From a virus (lineage: Duplodnaviria; Heunggongvirae; Uroviricota; Caudoviricetes): a stretch of 6,289 bases of DNA. The stretch lies in IMG/VR virus record IMGVR_UViG_2606217107_000014; one strand, 5' to 3'. The notes beneath the pieces were generated by a model that was not told where the DNA came from, ran no database searches, and was given only the letters and a program-made list of their open reading frames with translations. A program made the position numbers and the translations under genes. Shown one piece after another: positions 799 through 6,250 of this stretch (the stretch's first letter is position 1; each line of letters starts with the position of its first letter).

Positions 799-874
799 GG
801 CCCTTTAGCTCAGTGGTGAGAGCGAGCGACTCATAATCGCCAGGTCGCTGGTTCAAATCCAGCAAGGGCCACCA
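799..874 (+). tRNA. ileZ: tRNA with CAT anticodon (Ile2/lysidine-type or Met); 76 nt with encoded CCA
   Basis: Hand-folded cloverleaf: acceptor 799-805 GGCCCTT pairs with 864-870 AAGGGCC; D-arm AGCTCAGTGGTGAGAGC; anticodon loop cgactCATaatcg; T-arm GGTTCAAATCC; discriminator A then CCA at 872-874. Symbol by analogy to the ileZ-argN-argO cluster of Stx phages (recalled); Ile vs Met cannot be decided from sequence alone. Confidence 0.85.
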
Positions 875-881
875 TCACATA

Positions 882-958
882 CCGCCATTAGCTCATCAGG
901 AAAGAGCGCCAGCCTTCGAAGCTGGTTGCGCGGGGTTCGAGTCCTCGATGGCGGTCCA
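882..958 (+). tRNA. argN: tRNA-Arg (anticodon TCG), 77 nt with encoded CCA
   Basis: Acceptor 882-888 CCGCCAT pairs with ATGGCGG; D stem GCTC/GAGC; anticodon stem CCAGC/GCTGG with loop cTTCGaa (anticodon TCG); T stem CGGGG/CCTCG (one G-U) with TTCGAGT loop; discriminator T then CCA at 956-958. Symbol assigned by order, recalled not verified. Confidence 0.85.
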
Positions 959-971
959 TTATCGGTATTCT

Positions 972-1048
972 GCGTTGTTAGCTCAGCCGGACAGAGCAAT
1001 TGCCTTCTAAGTAATCGGTCACTGGTTCGAATCCAGTACAACGCGCCA
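972..1048 (+). tRNA. argO: tRNA-Arg (anticodon TCT, reads rare AGA/AGG), 77 nt with encoded CCA
   Basis: Acceptor 972-978 GCGTTGT pairs with 1038-1044 ACAACGC; D stem GCTC/GAGC; anticodon stem ATTGC/GTAAT with loop cTTCTaa; T stem ACTGG/CCAGT with TTCGAAT loop; discriminator G then CCA 1046-1048. Symbol assigned by order. Confidence 0.85.
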
Positions 1049-1061
1049 CACTTATTTTCCT

Positions 1062-1083
1062 GGCTCGCTTCGGCGGGCCTTTT
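1062..1083 (+). terminator. Rho-independent terminator after the tRNA cluster
   Basis: GGCTCGC (1062-1068), TTCG tetraloop, GCGGGCC (1073-1079; 7 bp with one G-U), then TTTT (1080-1083). Confidence 0.5.
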
Positions 1084-1211
1084 AATTTGCTGAAAAAGAA
1101 AACATCAGATGGTTAGTCGGGTATCAGTTATCTGGTGAAATTTTTAAATACCTCACAATTCAGGAAGGTGATTATTGTTTTTCTGGTGGGGAATTTGTTA
1201 AAAATCACTCC

Positions 1212-1396
1212 GCATGATGAATCCCCCTAAGCGGTGGGGCGACTGGCAAGGCTCCATTACGATGGTCACAATCCGCAGATTTAGTTTGCCAGGCTGAATC
1301 TACCGGGAGGCACCCGGCATCATGCATAATGTGGAAAATTGGAAATGTATTCAGGCCTCTACGAATTTTAGTAGAGGCTTTTTTTTGAGTAAAAAA
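1212..1396 (+). ncRNA. Candidate structured small RNA, copy A (structured core ~1212-1325 plus its own terminator 1365-1396)
   Basis: Conserved 5' block (cATGaTGAATCCCCCT..GCGGTGGGgCGACTGG) and 3' block (CTGAAtCtaCCGGGAGGCACCCGGCAtCATG) shared with copy B. Closing helix 1212-1219 GCATGATG pairs with 1318-1325 CATCATGC. Internal hairpin CCAT-tacg-ATGG (1254-1265) with a UNCG-type loop. Terminator GCCTCTAC / GTAGAGGC with 8-nt loop followed by T8 (1389-1396). No ORF or convincing promoter. Confidence 0.4.
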
Positions 1397-1400
1397 AGCC

Positions 1401-1427
1401 CGTCTATGGCAGCGGGCAAGTATGCAT
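1401..1427 (-). terminator. Minus-strand rho-independent terminator, back-to-back with the copy-A terminator
   Basis: On the + strand A7 (1401-1407) precedes GCCCG (1408-1412) ... CGGGC (1423-1427); on the minus strand this reads as a hairpin followed by T7. Stem is short (5-6 bp) with a 10-nt loop. Confidence 0.35.
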
Positions 1428-1615
1428 GAGAATACATTTTTTATTATTTGCCTGAAAATAGTACCCTGAGGTTATTGTTGTTTTCAACAGGCTGATTTGT
1501 GTTCTGATCGGGGATGTGACAAGGAACATACGTTCTTATGTGAAAATGTTAAATTCTTCACATTTCAGTGAGTTGAGTGTTGATTTCGTTTTATCTTTTT
1601 TGTTAAAAAAGTATT

Positions 1616-1795
1616 GCATGGTGAATCCCCCTGTGCGGTGGGACGACTGGTGACAACAATTCATCATCCGTGATGACCCAGAAGAGATCGCGGGTTCAGT
1701 GGCACCGGGCTGAACTCACCGGGAGGCACCCGGCACCATGTTCATGGTGATACAGAAATGCGGCTTCAGCCCCTCTCCGGAGGGGCTTTCTTATG
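1616..1795 (+). ncRNA. Candidate structured small RNA, copy B (diverged paralogue of copy A; core ~1616-1741 plus terminator-like hairpin 1768-1794)
   Basis: Same conserved 5' and 3' blocks as copy A. Closing helix 1616-1623 GCATGGTG pairs with 1734-1741 CACCATGT; the A-T pair of copy A is a G-C pair here (compensatory change). Internal hairpin TCATCA-tccg-TGATGA (1651-1666, UNCG loop). Helix GTTCAG (1694-1699) / CTGAAC (1710-1715) matches copy A's GATTTAG/CTGAATC with a U-G to C-G change. 3' hairpin AGCCCCTC-tccg-GAGGGGCT followed by TTCTTAT. Confidence 0.4.
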
Positions 1796-1798
1796 GAC

Positions 1799-1826
1799 AA
1801 AAAAGCCCGCGCTGGGAGACGCGGGC
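1799..1826 (-). terminator. Minus-strand rho-independent terminator, back-to-back with the copy-B hairpin
   Basis: + strand: A6 (1799-1804), GCCCGCG (1805-1811), 8-nt loop, CGCGGGC (1820-1826). On the minus strand this is a 7-bp GC stem followed by a T6 tract. Confidence 0.5.
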
Positions 1827-2019
1827 GGCAAGGAATAAACAATAAAACGTGAAGTAATATTTCAGCTGGCGAATAATACCCCATAGTAATCACTCTGCGC
1901 AACTGCGCGGCCTTTTTCGTATTGCGGGCTGTAGTCTCCCTTCTGCCATTGTCCTGTAACTTCCGGACTTCAGCTCGCTCCTTATCTGACTCACAACATT
2001 ATCCCGACCGGGAGGATTC

Positions 2020-3999
2020 ATGACATTTAAACACTACGATGTGGTCAGGGCGGCGTCGCCGTCAGACCTTGCGGAGCGACTGACACAAAAACTGAAGGAG
2101 GGGTGGCAGCCATTTGGCAGCCCTGTCGCCATCACGCCTTATACCCTGATGCAGGCCATTGCGGCGGAAGGTGATGTCACCACACCTGTGGTGGTGAAGC
2201 CGTCGGATGGAGAAGGCACAGTTATCAGCACCACCAGCGAACCGGAGTATTACTTTGTTGTTGTTCTGGCGGGGCAGTCAAACTCAATGTCTTTTGGGGA
2301 AGGGCTGCCGCTGCCGGAGACATATGACCGTCCGGACCCGCGTATTAAACAGCTGGCGCGTCGCAGTACGGTGACGCCGGGTGGTGCCGCCTGTAAATAT
2401 AACGACATCATTCCGGCAGACCACTGTCTGCATGATGTGCAGGATATGAGTAACCTGAATCATCCTCATGCAGACCTGAGTAAGGGACAGTACGGTTGTG
2501 TGGGGCATGCTCTGCATGTTGCCAAAAAGCTGCTGCCGTTTATGCCTGCGAATGCGGGTATCCTTCTTGTTCCATGTGGCCGTGGCGATTCGGGATTTAC
2601 TGCGGGGGCCGAGGGGGCGTTTAACGAAGCGTCGGGAGCGACCGCAGGCTCGTCCCTGTGGGGGGCGGATAAACCGCTGTATCATGACCTGGTCAGCAGA
2701 ACCCGTGCGGCCCTGAAGAAAAATCCGAAGAACGTGCTGTTATCAGTGATCTGGATGCAGGGAGAAAAAGATGTCAGTTCGGGGAGACATGCAGAACACA
2801 ATGCGCTTTTCCTTGCCATGGTAAATCAGTTCCGTACGGAACTGGCAGATGTGGCAGAGCAGTGTACTGGCGGGACAACGGCCAGCGTCCCGTGGATTTG
2901 CGGTGATACCACGTACTACTGGAAGGAAAGGTATGCAGCGCCGTATGAGGCGGTTTACGGTGGGTATAAAGGCAAAGCTGCGCAGAATATTCACTTTGTG
3001 CCGTTGATGACGGATGAGCATGGTGTGAATGTGCCGACAAACGAGCCGTCAGAAGATCCGGACATTATCCCGGCGGGATACTATGGCGCTGCGTCACGCA
3101 CTGCCAGTAACTGGACGTCAGCCAATCGTAAAACGCACTTCAGTTCATGGGCGCGAAGAGGCCTTGTTTCAGACCGTCTGGCAGGTGCCATTTTGCAGTA
3201 CGCCGGGCGGACATTATCGTTCCTTACCGGGCAGAGCGCACCGCTGTCGGGTGGTACAACTCCTGTCAGTCCGGGGACACCGGATGTTGAGAAACCGCAG
3301 GATGGCGGTGTTGCTGGTACTGGTCATGATGAGGCCGTGAGCAGTACCAGGACGGTGGCTGAATATGATGCGAACAGTGGAAATGGTGTATGGACAGAGC
3401 AGCAGTGGGGGGCTGCCGGTGGCAAAGGCACTGTGACTGATGACGGTGGACGGAAAGCGCTGCGACTGGAAAAACAGCCCGGTAAACTGACGTCCTGGAA
3501 AATGTTCCGTACTGTTGCAGTGGAGGAGGCAAAAAATCTTCTCAGCAAGGGGGGTGAAATTGCCGTACGGTTCAAAATTCCGGATGGAAGCGAACTGGTG
3601 AACGGACAGTTTGTCTTTGGTCTCTACTGGCCGGTGTCGCAGTGGGCGTCAGGCGCGGCAGCAAACAGTATGCTGGCATCATTCTTCCTTCAGACGGATG
3701 CATCAAATCTGAATCTTATGCACCACAAGGGCACGTCGAATGCACAACTGGGCACATTTGGTGCGTTTGACCATAACTGGCATACGGTTGTTTTCCGCTT
3801 TGCGGGAAATAACAGCGAAAGAGTCGTTCCGGTGATTGATGGTGCAGAGCAGACGGCGTTTGACCTTGTGATGTGGACAAATGATGGCTTTACAGCAGAT
3901 ACGCTGACGCTGACAGATATCACGGGGGCAAAAGCGACGTATCCTGTACTGCTTGATACGGTCACTGTCAAAGTGAAAGAAAGCGAAGCAGCGGCATAA
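2020..3999 (+). CDS. nanS-p: Prophage sialate O-acetylesterase (NanS-p-like; N-terminal DUF1737-like region, SASA/SGNH esterase domain, long C-terminal domain of unknown function)
   Basis: 659-aa ORF with GGAGG (2011-2015) 4 nt before the ATG. Contains GQSN (in VLAGQSNSMSFGEG), WMQGEKD and THF motifs that I associate with the SASA family. Position and N-terminus (MTFKHYDVV...) match my recollection of the esterase just downstream of stx in Stx phages (933W L0105). Recalled, not searched. Confidence 0.75.
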   Translation: MTFKHYDVVRAASPSDLAERLTQKLKEGWQPFGSPVAITPYTLMQAIAAEGDVTTPVVVKPSDGEGTVISTTSEPEYYFVVVLAGQSNSMSFGEGLPLPETYDRPDPRIKQLARRSTVTPGGAACKYNDIIPADHCLHDVQDMSNLNHPHADLSKGQYGCVGHALHVAKKLLPFMPANAGILLVPCGRGDSGFTAGAEGAFNEASGATAGSSLWGADKPLYHDLVSRTRAALKKNPKNVLLSVIWMQGEKDVSSGRHAEHNALFLAMVNQFRTELADVAEQCTGGTTASVPWICGDTTYYWKERYAAPYEAVYGGYKGKAAQNIHFVPLMTDEHGVNVPTNEPSEDPDIIPAGYYGAASRTASNWTSANRKTHFSSWARRGLVSDRLAGAILQYAGRTLSFLTGQSAPLSGGTTPVSPGTPDVEKPQDGGVAGTGHDEAVSSTRTVAEYDANSGNGVWTEQQWGAAGGKGTVTDDGGRKALRLEKQPGKLTSWKMFRTVAVEEAKNLLSKGGEIAVRFKIPDGSELVNGQFVFGLYWPVSQWASGAAANSMLASFFLQTDASNLNLMHHKGTSNAQLGTFGAFDHNWHTVVFRFAGNNSERVVPVIDGAEQTAFDLVMWTNDGFTADTLTLTDITGAKATYPVLLDTVTVKVKESEAAA

Positions 4000-4732: not shown

Positions 4733-4948
4733 ATGTACCAGATGGAAAAAATCACAACAGGTGTGTCATACACCACGTCAGCGGTGGGAACGGGCTACTG
4801 GTTCCTGCAGTTGCTGGACAGGGTTTCCCCGTCTCAGTGGGCGGCAATAGGCGTGCTGGGGAGTCTGTTGTTTGGGCTGCTGACATATCTGACTAACCTG
4901 TATTTCAAAATCAGAGAGGACCGTCGTAAGGCGGCGCGGGGAGAGTAA
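4733..4948 (+). CDS. S: Class II holin (pinholin, phage-21 S-type) with dual-start motif
   Basis: 71 aa; Met1 and Met4 (MYQMEK...) give the antiholin/holin dual start; a weakly hydrophobic Gly/Ala/Ser-rich first segment ([18 protein letters not shown]) and a second hydrophobic segment ([18 protein letters not shown]); charged C-terminal tail [17 protein letters not shown] lies 8 nt upstream. Matches my recollection of S21. Confidence 0.85.
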
Positions 4949-5716: not shown

Positions 5717-6250
5717 ATGAGCGCAAAAATCAGATACGGCCTGTCAGCTGCTGTTCTGGCGCTGATTGCTGCAGGCGCGTCTGCTCCTCAGATACTTGAC
5801 CAGTTTCTGGACGAAAAAGAGGGTAACCACACAACGGCATACCGTGATGGTGCAGGTATCTGGACCATCTGCCGTGGTGCCATCATGGTGGATGGCAAAC
5901 CTGTCGTTCCGGGCATGAAGTTGTCGAAGGAAAAATGCGACCAGGTTAACGCCATTGAGCGTGATAAAGCGCTGGCGTGGGTGGAGAAAAACATCAGAGT
6001 GCCGCTGACCGAACCCCAGAAAGCGGGGATCGCGTCATTCTGTCCGTACAACATTGGTCCCGGTAAGTGTTTCCCGTCGACGTTTTATAAACGAATTAAT
6101 GCAGGCGATCGCAGGGGGGCGTGTGAGGCGATTCGCTGGTGGATTAAGGACGGTGGCAGAGACTGCCGTATTCGCTCAAACAACTGTTACGGTCAGGTAT
6201 CCCGTCGCGACCAGGAGAGTGCGCTGGCGTGCTGGGGAATTGACAGATAA
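5717..6250 (+). CDS. R: SAR endolysin (T4-lysozyme-like muramidase with N-terminal signal-arrest-release segment)
   Basis: 177 aa; N-terminal Gly/Ala-rich weakly hydrophobic segment (GLSAAVLALIAAGASAP) and E35-D44-T50 with the 9/6 spacing of the T4 lysozyme catalytic triad. Same length as the lysozymes I recall from Qin (rrrQ) and 933W. No SD within 12 nt of the ATG. Confidence 0.85.
   Translation: MSAKIRYGLSAAVLALIAAGASAPQILDQFLDEKEGNHTTAYRDGAGIWTICRGAIMVDGKPVVPGMKLSKEKCDQVNAIERDKALAWVEKNIRVPLTEPQKAGIASFCPYNIGPGKCFPSTFYKRINAGDRRGACEAIRWWIKDGGRDCRIRSNNCYGQVSRRDQESALACWGIDR

Follow-up and report, generated by a model that had tools for sequence, protein, structure and literature searches.

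Two tandem STnc100-family RNA genes and their putative convergent partners in the late region of an Escherichia coli lambdoid prophage

Paired small RNA (sRNA) genes, placed between the late promoter and the lysis genes, have been known in lambdoid prophages since 2014, when one such pair was named the 'convergent sRNAs EcOnc02 and EcOnc27' and a similar layout was reported for the prophages Sp3, Sp4, Sp9, Sp10, Sp11, Sp15 and Sp17 (Tree et al. 2014). Dyads of sRNAs that bind Hfq are described at this place in at least eight prophages of strain Sakai (PMC7873438). The subject of this report is a 6,289-nucleotide stretch of DNA from the virus record IMGVR_UViG_2606217107_000014, called the window below, in which two tandem modules, copy A and copy B, lie between a group of tRNA genes and the sialate esterase gene nanS-p. 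Both modules are structured-RNA genes of the known family STnc100/EcOnc27/PasD, and the finding is largely a rediscovery.

The STnc100 family is common and poorly understood, and one member lies directly after the Shiga toxin (Stx) gene stx2B. In prophage Sp5 of Sakai, an enterohaemorrhagic E. coli (EHEC), the order is tRNAs, stx2AB, STnc100 (208 bits, + strand), AsxR (88 bits, - strand) and nanS-p; the STnc100 match starts about 75 nt 3' of stx2B, and the convergent AsxR gene is directly next to it on the opposite strand. Overexpression of sRNA103 raises the fimZ and espA transcripts; EcOnc27 is the same RNA as sRNA103, and it was crosslinked to Hfq by crosslinking and analysis of cDNA (CRAC) and confirmed on Northern blots (PMC7873438, PMC12711010). 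A 2025 paper also places STnc100 75 nt downstream of stx2 and reports its detection in outer-membrane vesicles (PMC12370729).

PasD1 and PasD2 of enteropathogenic E. coli (EPEC) are diverged STnc100 relatives (Zhu, Shabalina and Storz 2026 preprint). Both were validated by Northern blotting and have Hfq-mediated interactions in RIL-seq, a ligation-and-sequencing method for RNA interactions (Pearl Mizrahi et al. 2021, PMC8550237). Their chimeras map to the last ~50 nt, with a proposed seed UGUGAG between the closing helix, P1, and the terminator (PMC8550237). PasD2 is a 172-nt RNA.

Family membership and anatomy of copies A and B

A covariance-model search of the window (cmscan) gave two matches to Rfam family RF02076, STnc100, on the + strand, both covering model positions 1-206 of 206 and both far above the gathering score of 47 bits: copy A at 1182-1390 (122.1 bits, E = 3e-27) and copy B at 1586-1798 (140.3 bits, E = 6.8e-32). 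Both window copies are canonical STnc100. They share two direct-repeat blocks of 35-36 nt, in the same order and offset by 404-416 nt, one at 1212-1246 and 1616-1650 (89% identity) and the other at 1289-1324 and 1705-1740 (86% identity). The conserved blocks GAAUCCCCCU-N-GCGG-N-GGGGC and CACCGGGAGGCACCCGGCA are present in both copies, the first with one G-to-A change in copy B.

A first-pass annotation, made from the letters of the window alone, had described two diverged tandem copies of a structured RNA and proposed a covariance-model search with both; that search was run, and it and the repeat blocks bear the description out. The same annotation regarded an RNA-based cargo here as notable, but the cargo is not a new one, since the family is STnc100, alias EcOnc27 and sRNA103, with PasD as a relative, and Stx phages carry it too. 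Plain Rfam/Infernal annotation already labels both modules STnc100, and the finding as such therefore matters little. The interpretation is thus partly supported: it was right in kind but not new, both the RNA family and the genomic arrangement being known.

The view that the gap of about 950 bp holds no credible open reading frame (ORF) also stands. The longest ORF in 1050-2020 has at most 68 aa, and the coding reading of the gap was rejected, as none of the eight small ORFs tested gave a Pfam match at E<=1.

Single-sequence folds of A and B give P1, P2, P4, P5 and the terminator, with the linker unpaired (Table 1). P1 is the Rfam outer helix and lies exactly where the first-pass annotation had put a closing helix with a compensatory change; the swap of A-U for G-C between A and B is truly compensatory. 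The second helix of that annotation is real and equals P4, but at 8 bp it is longer than was stated, and it has two fully compensatory positions between the copies. The terminator scan found a T-run hairpin after each module, as had been noticed. The linkers of A and B are unlike each other and unlike that of PasD. In copy B, as in its close relatives, CACCATG (the 3' strand of P1), TT and CATGGTG stand in a row (1734-1749) and make up a perfect alternative hairpin rivalling P1; this hairpin is absent in Sakai and degenerate in copy A.

The putative promoter motif TTTGTTAAAAA is identical in both copies (repeat family D7). PasD2 begins (NC_011601 741157) at the G of GCATGGTG, which is the first base of P1, and ends in the T-run of the terminator; it has the same -10-to-start spacing as copy A. 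Because the motif is shared and PasD2 starts at this G, the RNAs would, by analogy, start at about 1212 (A) and 1616 (B). A possible -35 element for copy B is TTGATT at 1580-1585. The TGnTAAAAA box is a feature of the Escherichia lineage; across genera the search for a promoter consensus found only a weak AT-richness about 7-12 nt 5' of P1.

Two published observations touch this promoter. If the Sp5 RNA starts as PasD2 does, the first ~29 positions of the RF02076 model would be promoter DNA (2923-2951 of our Sp5 locus, L003). An 11-nt complementarity to stxB was reported for 'STnc100 positions 5-15' (PMC12370729), and it would then fall outside the RNA made from that promoter. A 2025 machine-learning study ranked variants beside STnc100/sRNA103 among the top predictors of haemolytic uraemic syndrome, and predictive variants are reported at +90 (T/C) and +103 (T deletion) after stx2B (PMC12711010). 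By an approximate count these map to the -10 box and the pre-start spacer of Sp5 STnc100 (L003 ~2935-2951), and on that mapping they would lie in the promoter and not in the RNA body of STnc100/EcOnc27.

Table 1. Features of the window, in order of position
Feature	Position	Strand	Basis or remark
DNA methyltransferase gene	to 758		ORF list, RefSeq annotation of identical locus
Three tRNA genes	799-1048		upstream of gap
Intrinsic terminator 3' of tRNA cluster	1062..1085	+	terminator scan; upstream border of sRNA region
Copy A putative -10, extended TG-T-TAAAAA	1196..1204	+	7 nt 5' of G1212; analogy
STnc100 copy A, predicted RNA ~175 nt	1212..1386	+	Rfam match, fold, pair counts, terminator scan
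Copy A P1	1212-1219 GCATGATG / 1318-1325 CATCATGC	+	sequence; Rfam outer helix
Copy A P2	1224-1228/1235-1239	+	
Copy A candidate pseudoknot	1243-1249 CTGGCAA / 1286-1292 TTGCCAG	+	
Copy A variable hairpin P3	1254-1257/1262-1265	+	
Copy A P4, 8 bp	1277-1284 AGATTTAG / 1294-1301 CTGAATCT	+	
Copy A P5	1303-1307/1313-1317	+	
Copy A single-stranded linker	1326-1352	+	sequence AUAAUGUGGAAAAUUGGAAAUGUAUUCA
Copy A terminator stem	1353-1380, T-run to 1386	+	terminator scan
A', convergent short sRNA-like gene, ~58 nt	1391..1450	-	weak AsxR/AgvB matches, position, alignments
A' promoter-like site TTGAAA-18 nt-TACTAT	1458..1487	-	promoter scan, consensus match only
Copy B putative -10, extended TG-T-TAAAAA	1601..1609	+	6 nt 5' of G1616; analogy
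STnc100 copy B, predicted RNA ~179 nt	1616..1794	+	Rfam match, fold, pair counts, terminator scan
Copy B P1	1616-1623 GCATGGTG / 1734-1741 CACCATGT	+	sequence; Rfam outer helix
Copy B P2	1628-1632/1639-1643	+	C-A mismatch at 1628/1643
Copy B candidate pseudoknot	1647-1652 CTGGTG / 1703-1708 CACCGG	+	
Copy B variable hairpin	1661-1666/1671-1676	+	
Copy B P4, 8 bp	1692-1699 GGGTTCAG / 1710-1717 CTGAACTC	+	
Copy B P5	1719-1723/1729-1733	+	
Copy B linker	1742-1767	+	sequence UUCAUGGUGAUACAGAAAUGCGGCUUCA
Copy B terminator	1768-1787 + TTTCTTAT, to 1794	+	terminator scan
B', convergent short sRNA-like gene	1799..1851	-	terminator scan; EPEC candidate match
Further terminator-like hairpin	1895..1917	+	terminator scan; between sRNA region and nanS-p
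nanS-p, SASA-family sialate esterase gene	2020..3999	+	ORF list, RefSeq annotation of identical locus; downstream border
Holin gene, after small genes	4733-4948		ORF list, RefSeq annotation of identical locus
Lysozyme gene	5717-6250		ORF list, RefSeq annotation of identical locus

Covariation and a pseudoknot across the homologues

Homologues were collected by scanning one genome per species for exact 17-mers and then running nhmmer. Cores were recovered in many Enterobacterales, among them Salmonella, Klebsiella, Enterobacter, Kosakonia, Raoultella, Superficieibacter, Trabulsiella, Cedecea, Leclercia, Pantoea, Erwinia and Rahnella, and all 18 loci that were checked hold RF02076 matches above threshold. 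Pairing was counted on two alignments, one of 72 cores made with MAFFT and one of 92 cores from about 50 species built on the model, with 500 shuffles as the control.

On the two alignments P1 is 89-90% paired (90% on the 92 homologues), with both-side changes at seven of its eight pairs, and P4 is 88-91% paired (90.6% on the 92 homologues), with both-side changes at all eight pairs and up to six pair types at one position. P5 is 98.5% paired on the 92 homologues and nearly invariant. P2 is mostly invariant, its CCCC/GGGG becoming GCG/CGC in a deep subfamily of nine loci (alignment A5), which supplies the compensatory evidence for P2 that is lacking in the main group. None of the 500 shuffles matches the observed values on any measure, and sliding the 3' partners by 1-3 columns lowers the pairing to 40-48% (40-46% on the 92 homologues). 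Some loop and junction bases are near-invariant as well, namely GAAUCCCCCU..GCGG, the GCG 5' of P4, and CCGGGAGGCACCCGG. The pairing-preserving changes at P1 and P4 speak for a conserved fold, as the first-pass annotation had argued, and the Rfam E-values put both modules well outside chance.

The + strand is the right one from which to read the RNA, because G-U pairs are common in P4 and the pseudoknot (at one P4 pair, 38 homologues have GU and 34 have AU) and because EcOnc27 and PasD are detected RNAs. Transcription of this strand had been proposed at first from hairpins in the variable middle capped by UNCG tetraloops, and this argument has to be set aside. The loop letters are indeed present, UACG at 1258-1261 and UCCG at 1667-1670, but the pairs that close them are U-A and A-U and not C-G, and the hairpin plays no part in copy B's minimum-energy fold. 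The closest relative of copy A has AGCG where copy A has UACG, and a UNCG-capped hairpin in the variable middle occurs in only two of 88 homologues, which are the two window copies. A hairpin of at least 4 bp with a loop of 3-8 nt is possible between the pseudoknot strand and P4 in 78 of the 88; the variable stretch measures 25-56 nt, a length that often gives a hairpin by chance. For these reasons the tetraloops were ruled out as evidence of structure.

A segment 2-3 nt 3' of P2 is complementary to the loop of P4, which was first spotted across 77 cores. The two strands differ between lineages and remain complementary: TTTGATC / GATCAAA, AGGCTAC / GTAGCCT and AAATCTG / CAGATTT are examples from other lineages, as is TATCAGCGC after P2 with GTGCTGATA in the P4 loop, and PasD2 has AATGATC / GATCATT. 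Because the pairing crosses P4, it would form an H-type pseudoknot. A count in fixed columns fails to make it visible (47.7% paired in the MAFFT alignment, 48.4% in the model-based one), because the register drifts by 1-3 nt between lineages. The pairing was therefore tested without an alignment, by comparing cognate with non-cognate partners in 88 cores over 10,000 permutations. The best helix has a mean of 6.40 bp for cognate and 4.42 bp for permuted partners (0/10,000), a helix of at least 6 bp is found in 77% of cognate and 19% of non-cognate pairs, and the duplex energy is -8.5 against -4.0 kcal/mol. With 33 representatives of clearly different sequence, the means are 6.42 and 4.31 bp (0/10,000). 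Helices that tolerate G-U outnumber those that tolerate A-C by 49 to 10, which again argues for an RNA made from this strand.

This pairing is not in the nested RF02076 consensus that cmscan prints, and the word 'pseudoknot' is nowhere in the 2026 preprint, which used RNAalifold. The covariation-supported pseudoknot is possibly a new point. With it the fold appears to go beyond the published nested model, and support from about 50 species would alter the reading of mutations in STnc100 RNAs and the modelling of the family. The fold first described for the window was incomplete in that it missed both this element and the convergent minus-strand partners.

Convergent partners, the stx slot and core arrays

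Tail-to-tail with copy A, and separated from it by 4 nt, lies the sRNA-like gene A', with the terminator GCCCG..CGGGC followed by T7. A' aligns end-to-end with AsxR (20.7 bits, threshold 63) and with AgvB (15.9 bits, threshold 56), and its position is that of AsxR beside STnc100 in Sakai Sp5. The promoter-like site listed in Table 1 would set its start near 1451. The corresponding gene convergent to copy B, B', has a terminator at 1826-1805 (GCCCGCG..CGCGGGC, then T6). With few substitutions and a 2-nt gap, B' is near-identical to the EPEC RIL-seq sRNA candidate E2348C_1409.E2348C_1408.IGR, for which a seed CUUGCG was proposed, and it is also near-identical to the corresponding element in an Stx2a phage. 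The covariance search of the whole window gave no AsxR or AgvB match for B' at E<=1.

In length, terminator and position, A' and B' are comparable to the AsxR/AgvB type of 51-60 nt. The conserved AsxR/AgvB motif is shared in part by A' (TCTCATGCA..TTGCCCG) but not by B'. The two are filed as AsxR-like in position and architecture and not as members of these families. In all, the gap would contain four putative sRNA genes, paired as two dyads.

The window covers the late region of an E. coli lambdoid prophage, with 99.9% identity to a prophage of strain DETEC-S792, and its gene order is methyltransferase, tRNAs, A/A', B/B', nanS-p, holin and lysozyme. This order agrees with the first-pass view that the modules sit in the cargo ('moron') slot of such a prophage. 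The same view placed both modules where Stx phages carry stxAB, and here only one half of it holds. With the 971-bp region as the query, megablast homology to Stx2 phages covers positions 550-971 only, which correspond to 1599-2020 of the window, from the start of copy B. Copy B, B' and the region upstream of nanS-p are the part held in common with Stx2 phages, where it lies after stxB. Because the homology resumes at 1599, only copy A and A' (~1182-1450) occupy the stxAB position. This non-Stx prophage, with a second sRNA dyad in the stx slot, illustrates that RNA and protein cargo are swapped there with equal ease.

Of 5,426 complete E. coli genomes, 1,204 match the 971-bp region, which makes the family common; six cover at least 80% of 1050-2020, which makes the full arrangement rare. 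Copy A has no relative above ~67% identity among 50,697 phage records. A prophage of E. coli S19-651 has three copies in the slot, and one of these is closer to copy A than any other, its variable hairpin included.

Tandem copies in this slot are not unusual, given the three copies in S19-651 and up to six cores per kb in other Enterobacterales. A recurring layout, found in Klebsiella, Superficieibacter and Enterobacter and on a Pantoea plasmid, is a Q or DUF1133 gene, sometimes a tRNA gene, then one or more STnc100 modules and a holin or lysozyme gene. For example, in Klebsiella grimontii, Superficieibacter electus (three copies) and an Enterobacter sp. the modules lie between Q/DUF1133, sometimes with tRNA-Arg, and holin/lysozyme. 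An obligatory link to tRNA genes, by co-transcription or processing, was rejected, as only 7 of 51 foreign loci have a tRNA gene upstream on the same strand. The idea that every core in the family has its own terminator was likewise given up, since a strict detector found a terminator within 130 nt of 52 out of 89 cores.

On plasmid pAPP145_2 of Pantoea sp. App145, two units, each of three back-to-back cores, come after a DUF1133 gene, with the cores spaced 11-56 nt apart and one terminator per unit (L092 949-1989, - strand; L068 3115-4486). This layout would imply multi-core transcripts. The next 8 kb of the plasmid hold six more cores and a tRNA-Ala gene. Several Kosakonia species, Klebsiella indica and an Enterobacter have a copy on the chromosome, remote from phage genes, that lies about 200 nt upstream of kdgM, the oligogalacturonate porin gene, and a pectate lyase gene. 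In Kosakonia pseudosacchari this copy (L075 3075-3203, - strand) stands beside a LuxR-type regulator gene with no phage genes nearby, and six further loci have kdgM-linked copies. The Pantoea arrays and the kdgM-linked copies suggest that the core can work as its own unit. The widespread multi-copy core arrays, including the triple-core units, are possibly a new point.

Some further observations concern the surroundings. The terminator 3' of the tRNA-Arg gene of the window (GGCTCGCTTCGGCGGGCC and a T-run) is the same as the one closing a Pantoea triple-core unit (L092 ~900-925). The hairpin between the sRNA region and nanS-p is kept in Sakai Sp5 (sequence comparison, L003 3211-3234). The tRNA gene at 799-874 is called Met (CAT) by ARAGORN, and the identical gene is tRNA-Ile (ileZ type, CAT anticodon) in RefSeq. 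The gap at 4000-4146 matches the place, between the esterase and holin genes, where EPEC has PasA on the minus strand (L125 3766-4213), and another locus (L004) has a weak Esr41 match at the same position. The other Rfam matches in the window were rejected as weak or spurious; they are Plastid-ycf2, antisense to the tRNA at 799-874, anti-hemB and STnc470.

Proposed mechanism and comparison with known systems

We consider it likely that the window encodes two dyads of trans-acting, Hfq-dependent STnc100 sRNAs with convergent sponge-like partners, parts of this picture being taken from the relatives. Dyad A would consist of copy A and A', and dyad B of copy B and B'. Each STnc100 RNA would be made from its own sigma-70 promoter (TGnTAAAAA), starting at the first base of P1 and ending at the intrinsic terminator. 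The first 115-128 nt would form a closed compact domain of P1, P2, the variable hairpin, P4 and P5 with the H-type pseudoknot, and the following AU-rich single-stranded linker of 25-30 nt, together with the U-tail of the terminator, would be the part that binds Hfq and pairs with targets. Like PasD1/2, the RNAs would most likely act on mRNAs of the host and the prophage in trans, and A and B may have different sets of targets, because their linkers and variable hairpins differ. A' and B' would be short Hfq-bound sponges or anti-sRNAs, similar to AsxR/AgvB. On lytic induction, Q-modified polymerase would presumably read through all four genes.

Several observations weigh against this picture. 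The folding z-scores of the single sequences are modest (-2.2 for A and -1.4 for B), and copy B reads GGGAC at a place (position 1643) where GGGGC stands in the 99.9%-identical genome and in all close relatives, so that its C-A mismatch in P2 could leave it slightly impaired. A' and B' fall below the gathering scores of AsxR (RF02703) and AgvB (RF02702), and membership in either family was rejected. RNA-seq abundance of PasD2 is not lowered in an hfq mutant (log2 fold change +0.5 and +2.3). The triple-core units of pAPP145_2, whose cores have no terminators of their own, do not fit a scheme of one promoter, one seed and one terminator. Finally, it is the 5' domain and not the presumed seed that is conserved across genera, the reverse of the usual sRNA pattern, and conservation this strong suggests that the domain has its own function.

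This last point leads to the best of the alternatives, in which the pseudoknotted core of ~115 nt is itself the effector, an autonomous domain that binds a protein or small molecule, for example as a decoy or sponge, the 3' tail being secondary. Between Escherichia and Pantoea, Rahnella and Erwinia it is the core that is conserved, down to its near-invariant loop and junction bases, and the linker is not; five helices and the pseudoknot are packed into its ~115 nt; and it occurs in multi-copy arrays, some with three cores back to back, and in Kosakonia on the chromosome outside any prophage. If this were true, phages and plasmids of the Enterobacterales would deploy the core singly with an sRNA tail or with up to three cores per transcript, and A and B would be differently programmed units, as they differ in pseudoknot, variable hairpin and linker. 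Against it, apart from the upstream Q/DUF1133 antiterminator, no conserved neighbour points to a partner protein or ligand, the relatives behave as ordinary Hfq sRNAs with targets, and PasD is still an active sRNA without P5. We regard an autonomous core as unlikely, though it deserves to be kept in mind.

Even less probable is that the modules are cis-acting leaders of the late operon or of nanS-p, either riboswitch-like attenuators or modifiers of polymerase like the put RNA of phage HK022. The modules always lie 3' of Q/DUF1133 and 5' of the lysis genes on the same strand, a structured domain followed by a terminator resembles an aptamer with its expression platform, and the Kosakonia copy is on the same strand as kdgM. 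The 3' strand of P1 in copy B can also pair with CATGGTG at 1743-1749. However, this alternative hairpin is not conserved, being absent in Sakai and copy A, and does not overlap the terminator, and it was rejected as a riboswitch platform. Moreover, a convergent gene and the terminator at 1895-1917 stand between copy B and nanS-p, the relatives accumulate as discrete Hfq-binding RNAs of ~170 nt, and these phages have protein antiterminators. That the repeats act as DNA, as recombination or protein-binding sites, or are functionless remnants of duplication is hardly credible: the region is a mosaic recombination hot spot and the exact arrangement is found in so few genomes, but both-side pairing-preserving changes are widespread, the abundant G-U pairs would be mismatches on the other strand or in DNA, and members of the family are detected as RNAs.

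The reading as two dyads of trans-acting sRNAs is therefore the one that we carry into the comparison with known systems, and specialists may find leads worth following in the pseudoknot, in the arrays and in the inverted pattern of conservation. Tandem paralogous sRNAs are known from OmrA/OmrB, PrrF1/PrrF2 and Qrr. The present copies resemble these in being adjacent and diverged, with a shared scaffold and a part of the sequence that differs, a combination that allows overlapping or distinct target sets. They differ from them in what is kept, as the older examples have a conserved seed and terminator, whereas here a pseudoknotted 5' domain is conserved and the presumed seed is variable. The 2026 preprint names the same three examples and describes the PasA and PasD copies as distal, not tandem.

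A' and B' resemble AsxR and AgvB (Tree et al. 2014) in their similar length, their terminator end and their position convergent to an STnc100 gene, as for AsxR in Sp5. Unlike these, they score below threshold, and B' matches an uncharacterised EPEC candidate instead. PasD1 and PasD2 of EPEC strain E2348/69 are like copies A and B in lying upstream of a sialate esterase gene, in the 5' start at GCATGGTG, in keeping P1, P2, P4 and the pseudoknot, and in having a linker and a terminator at the 3' end. However, PasD is without P5 and at 41.4 bits is under the STnc100 threshold of 47, and its seed UGUGAG is in neither of the window linkers. The closest system is STnc100/EcOnc27/sRNA103 of the EHEC strains Sakai and EDL933 / 86-24, which has the same helices, -10 motif and terminator, and which also lies upstream of nanS-p in a lambdoid late region with a convergent partner. 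The present prophage differs from it in being without stx, in having two dyads and not one, and in having, as copy A, a diverged variant of the RNA.

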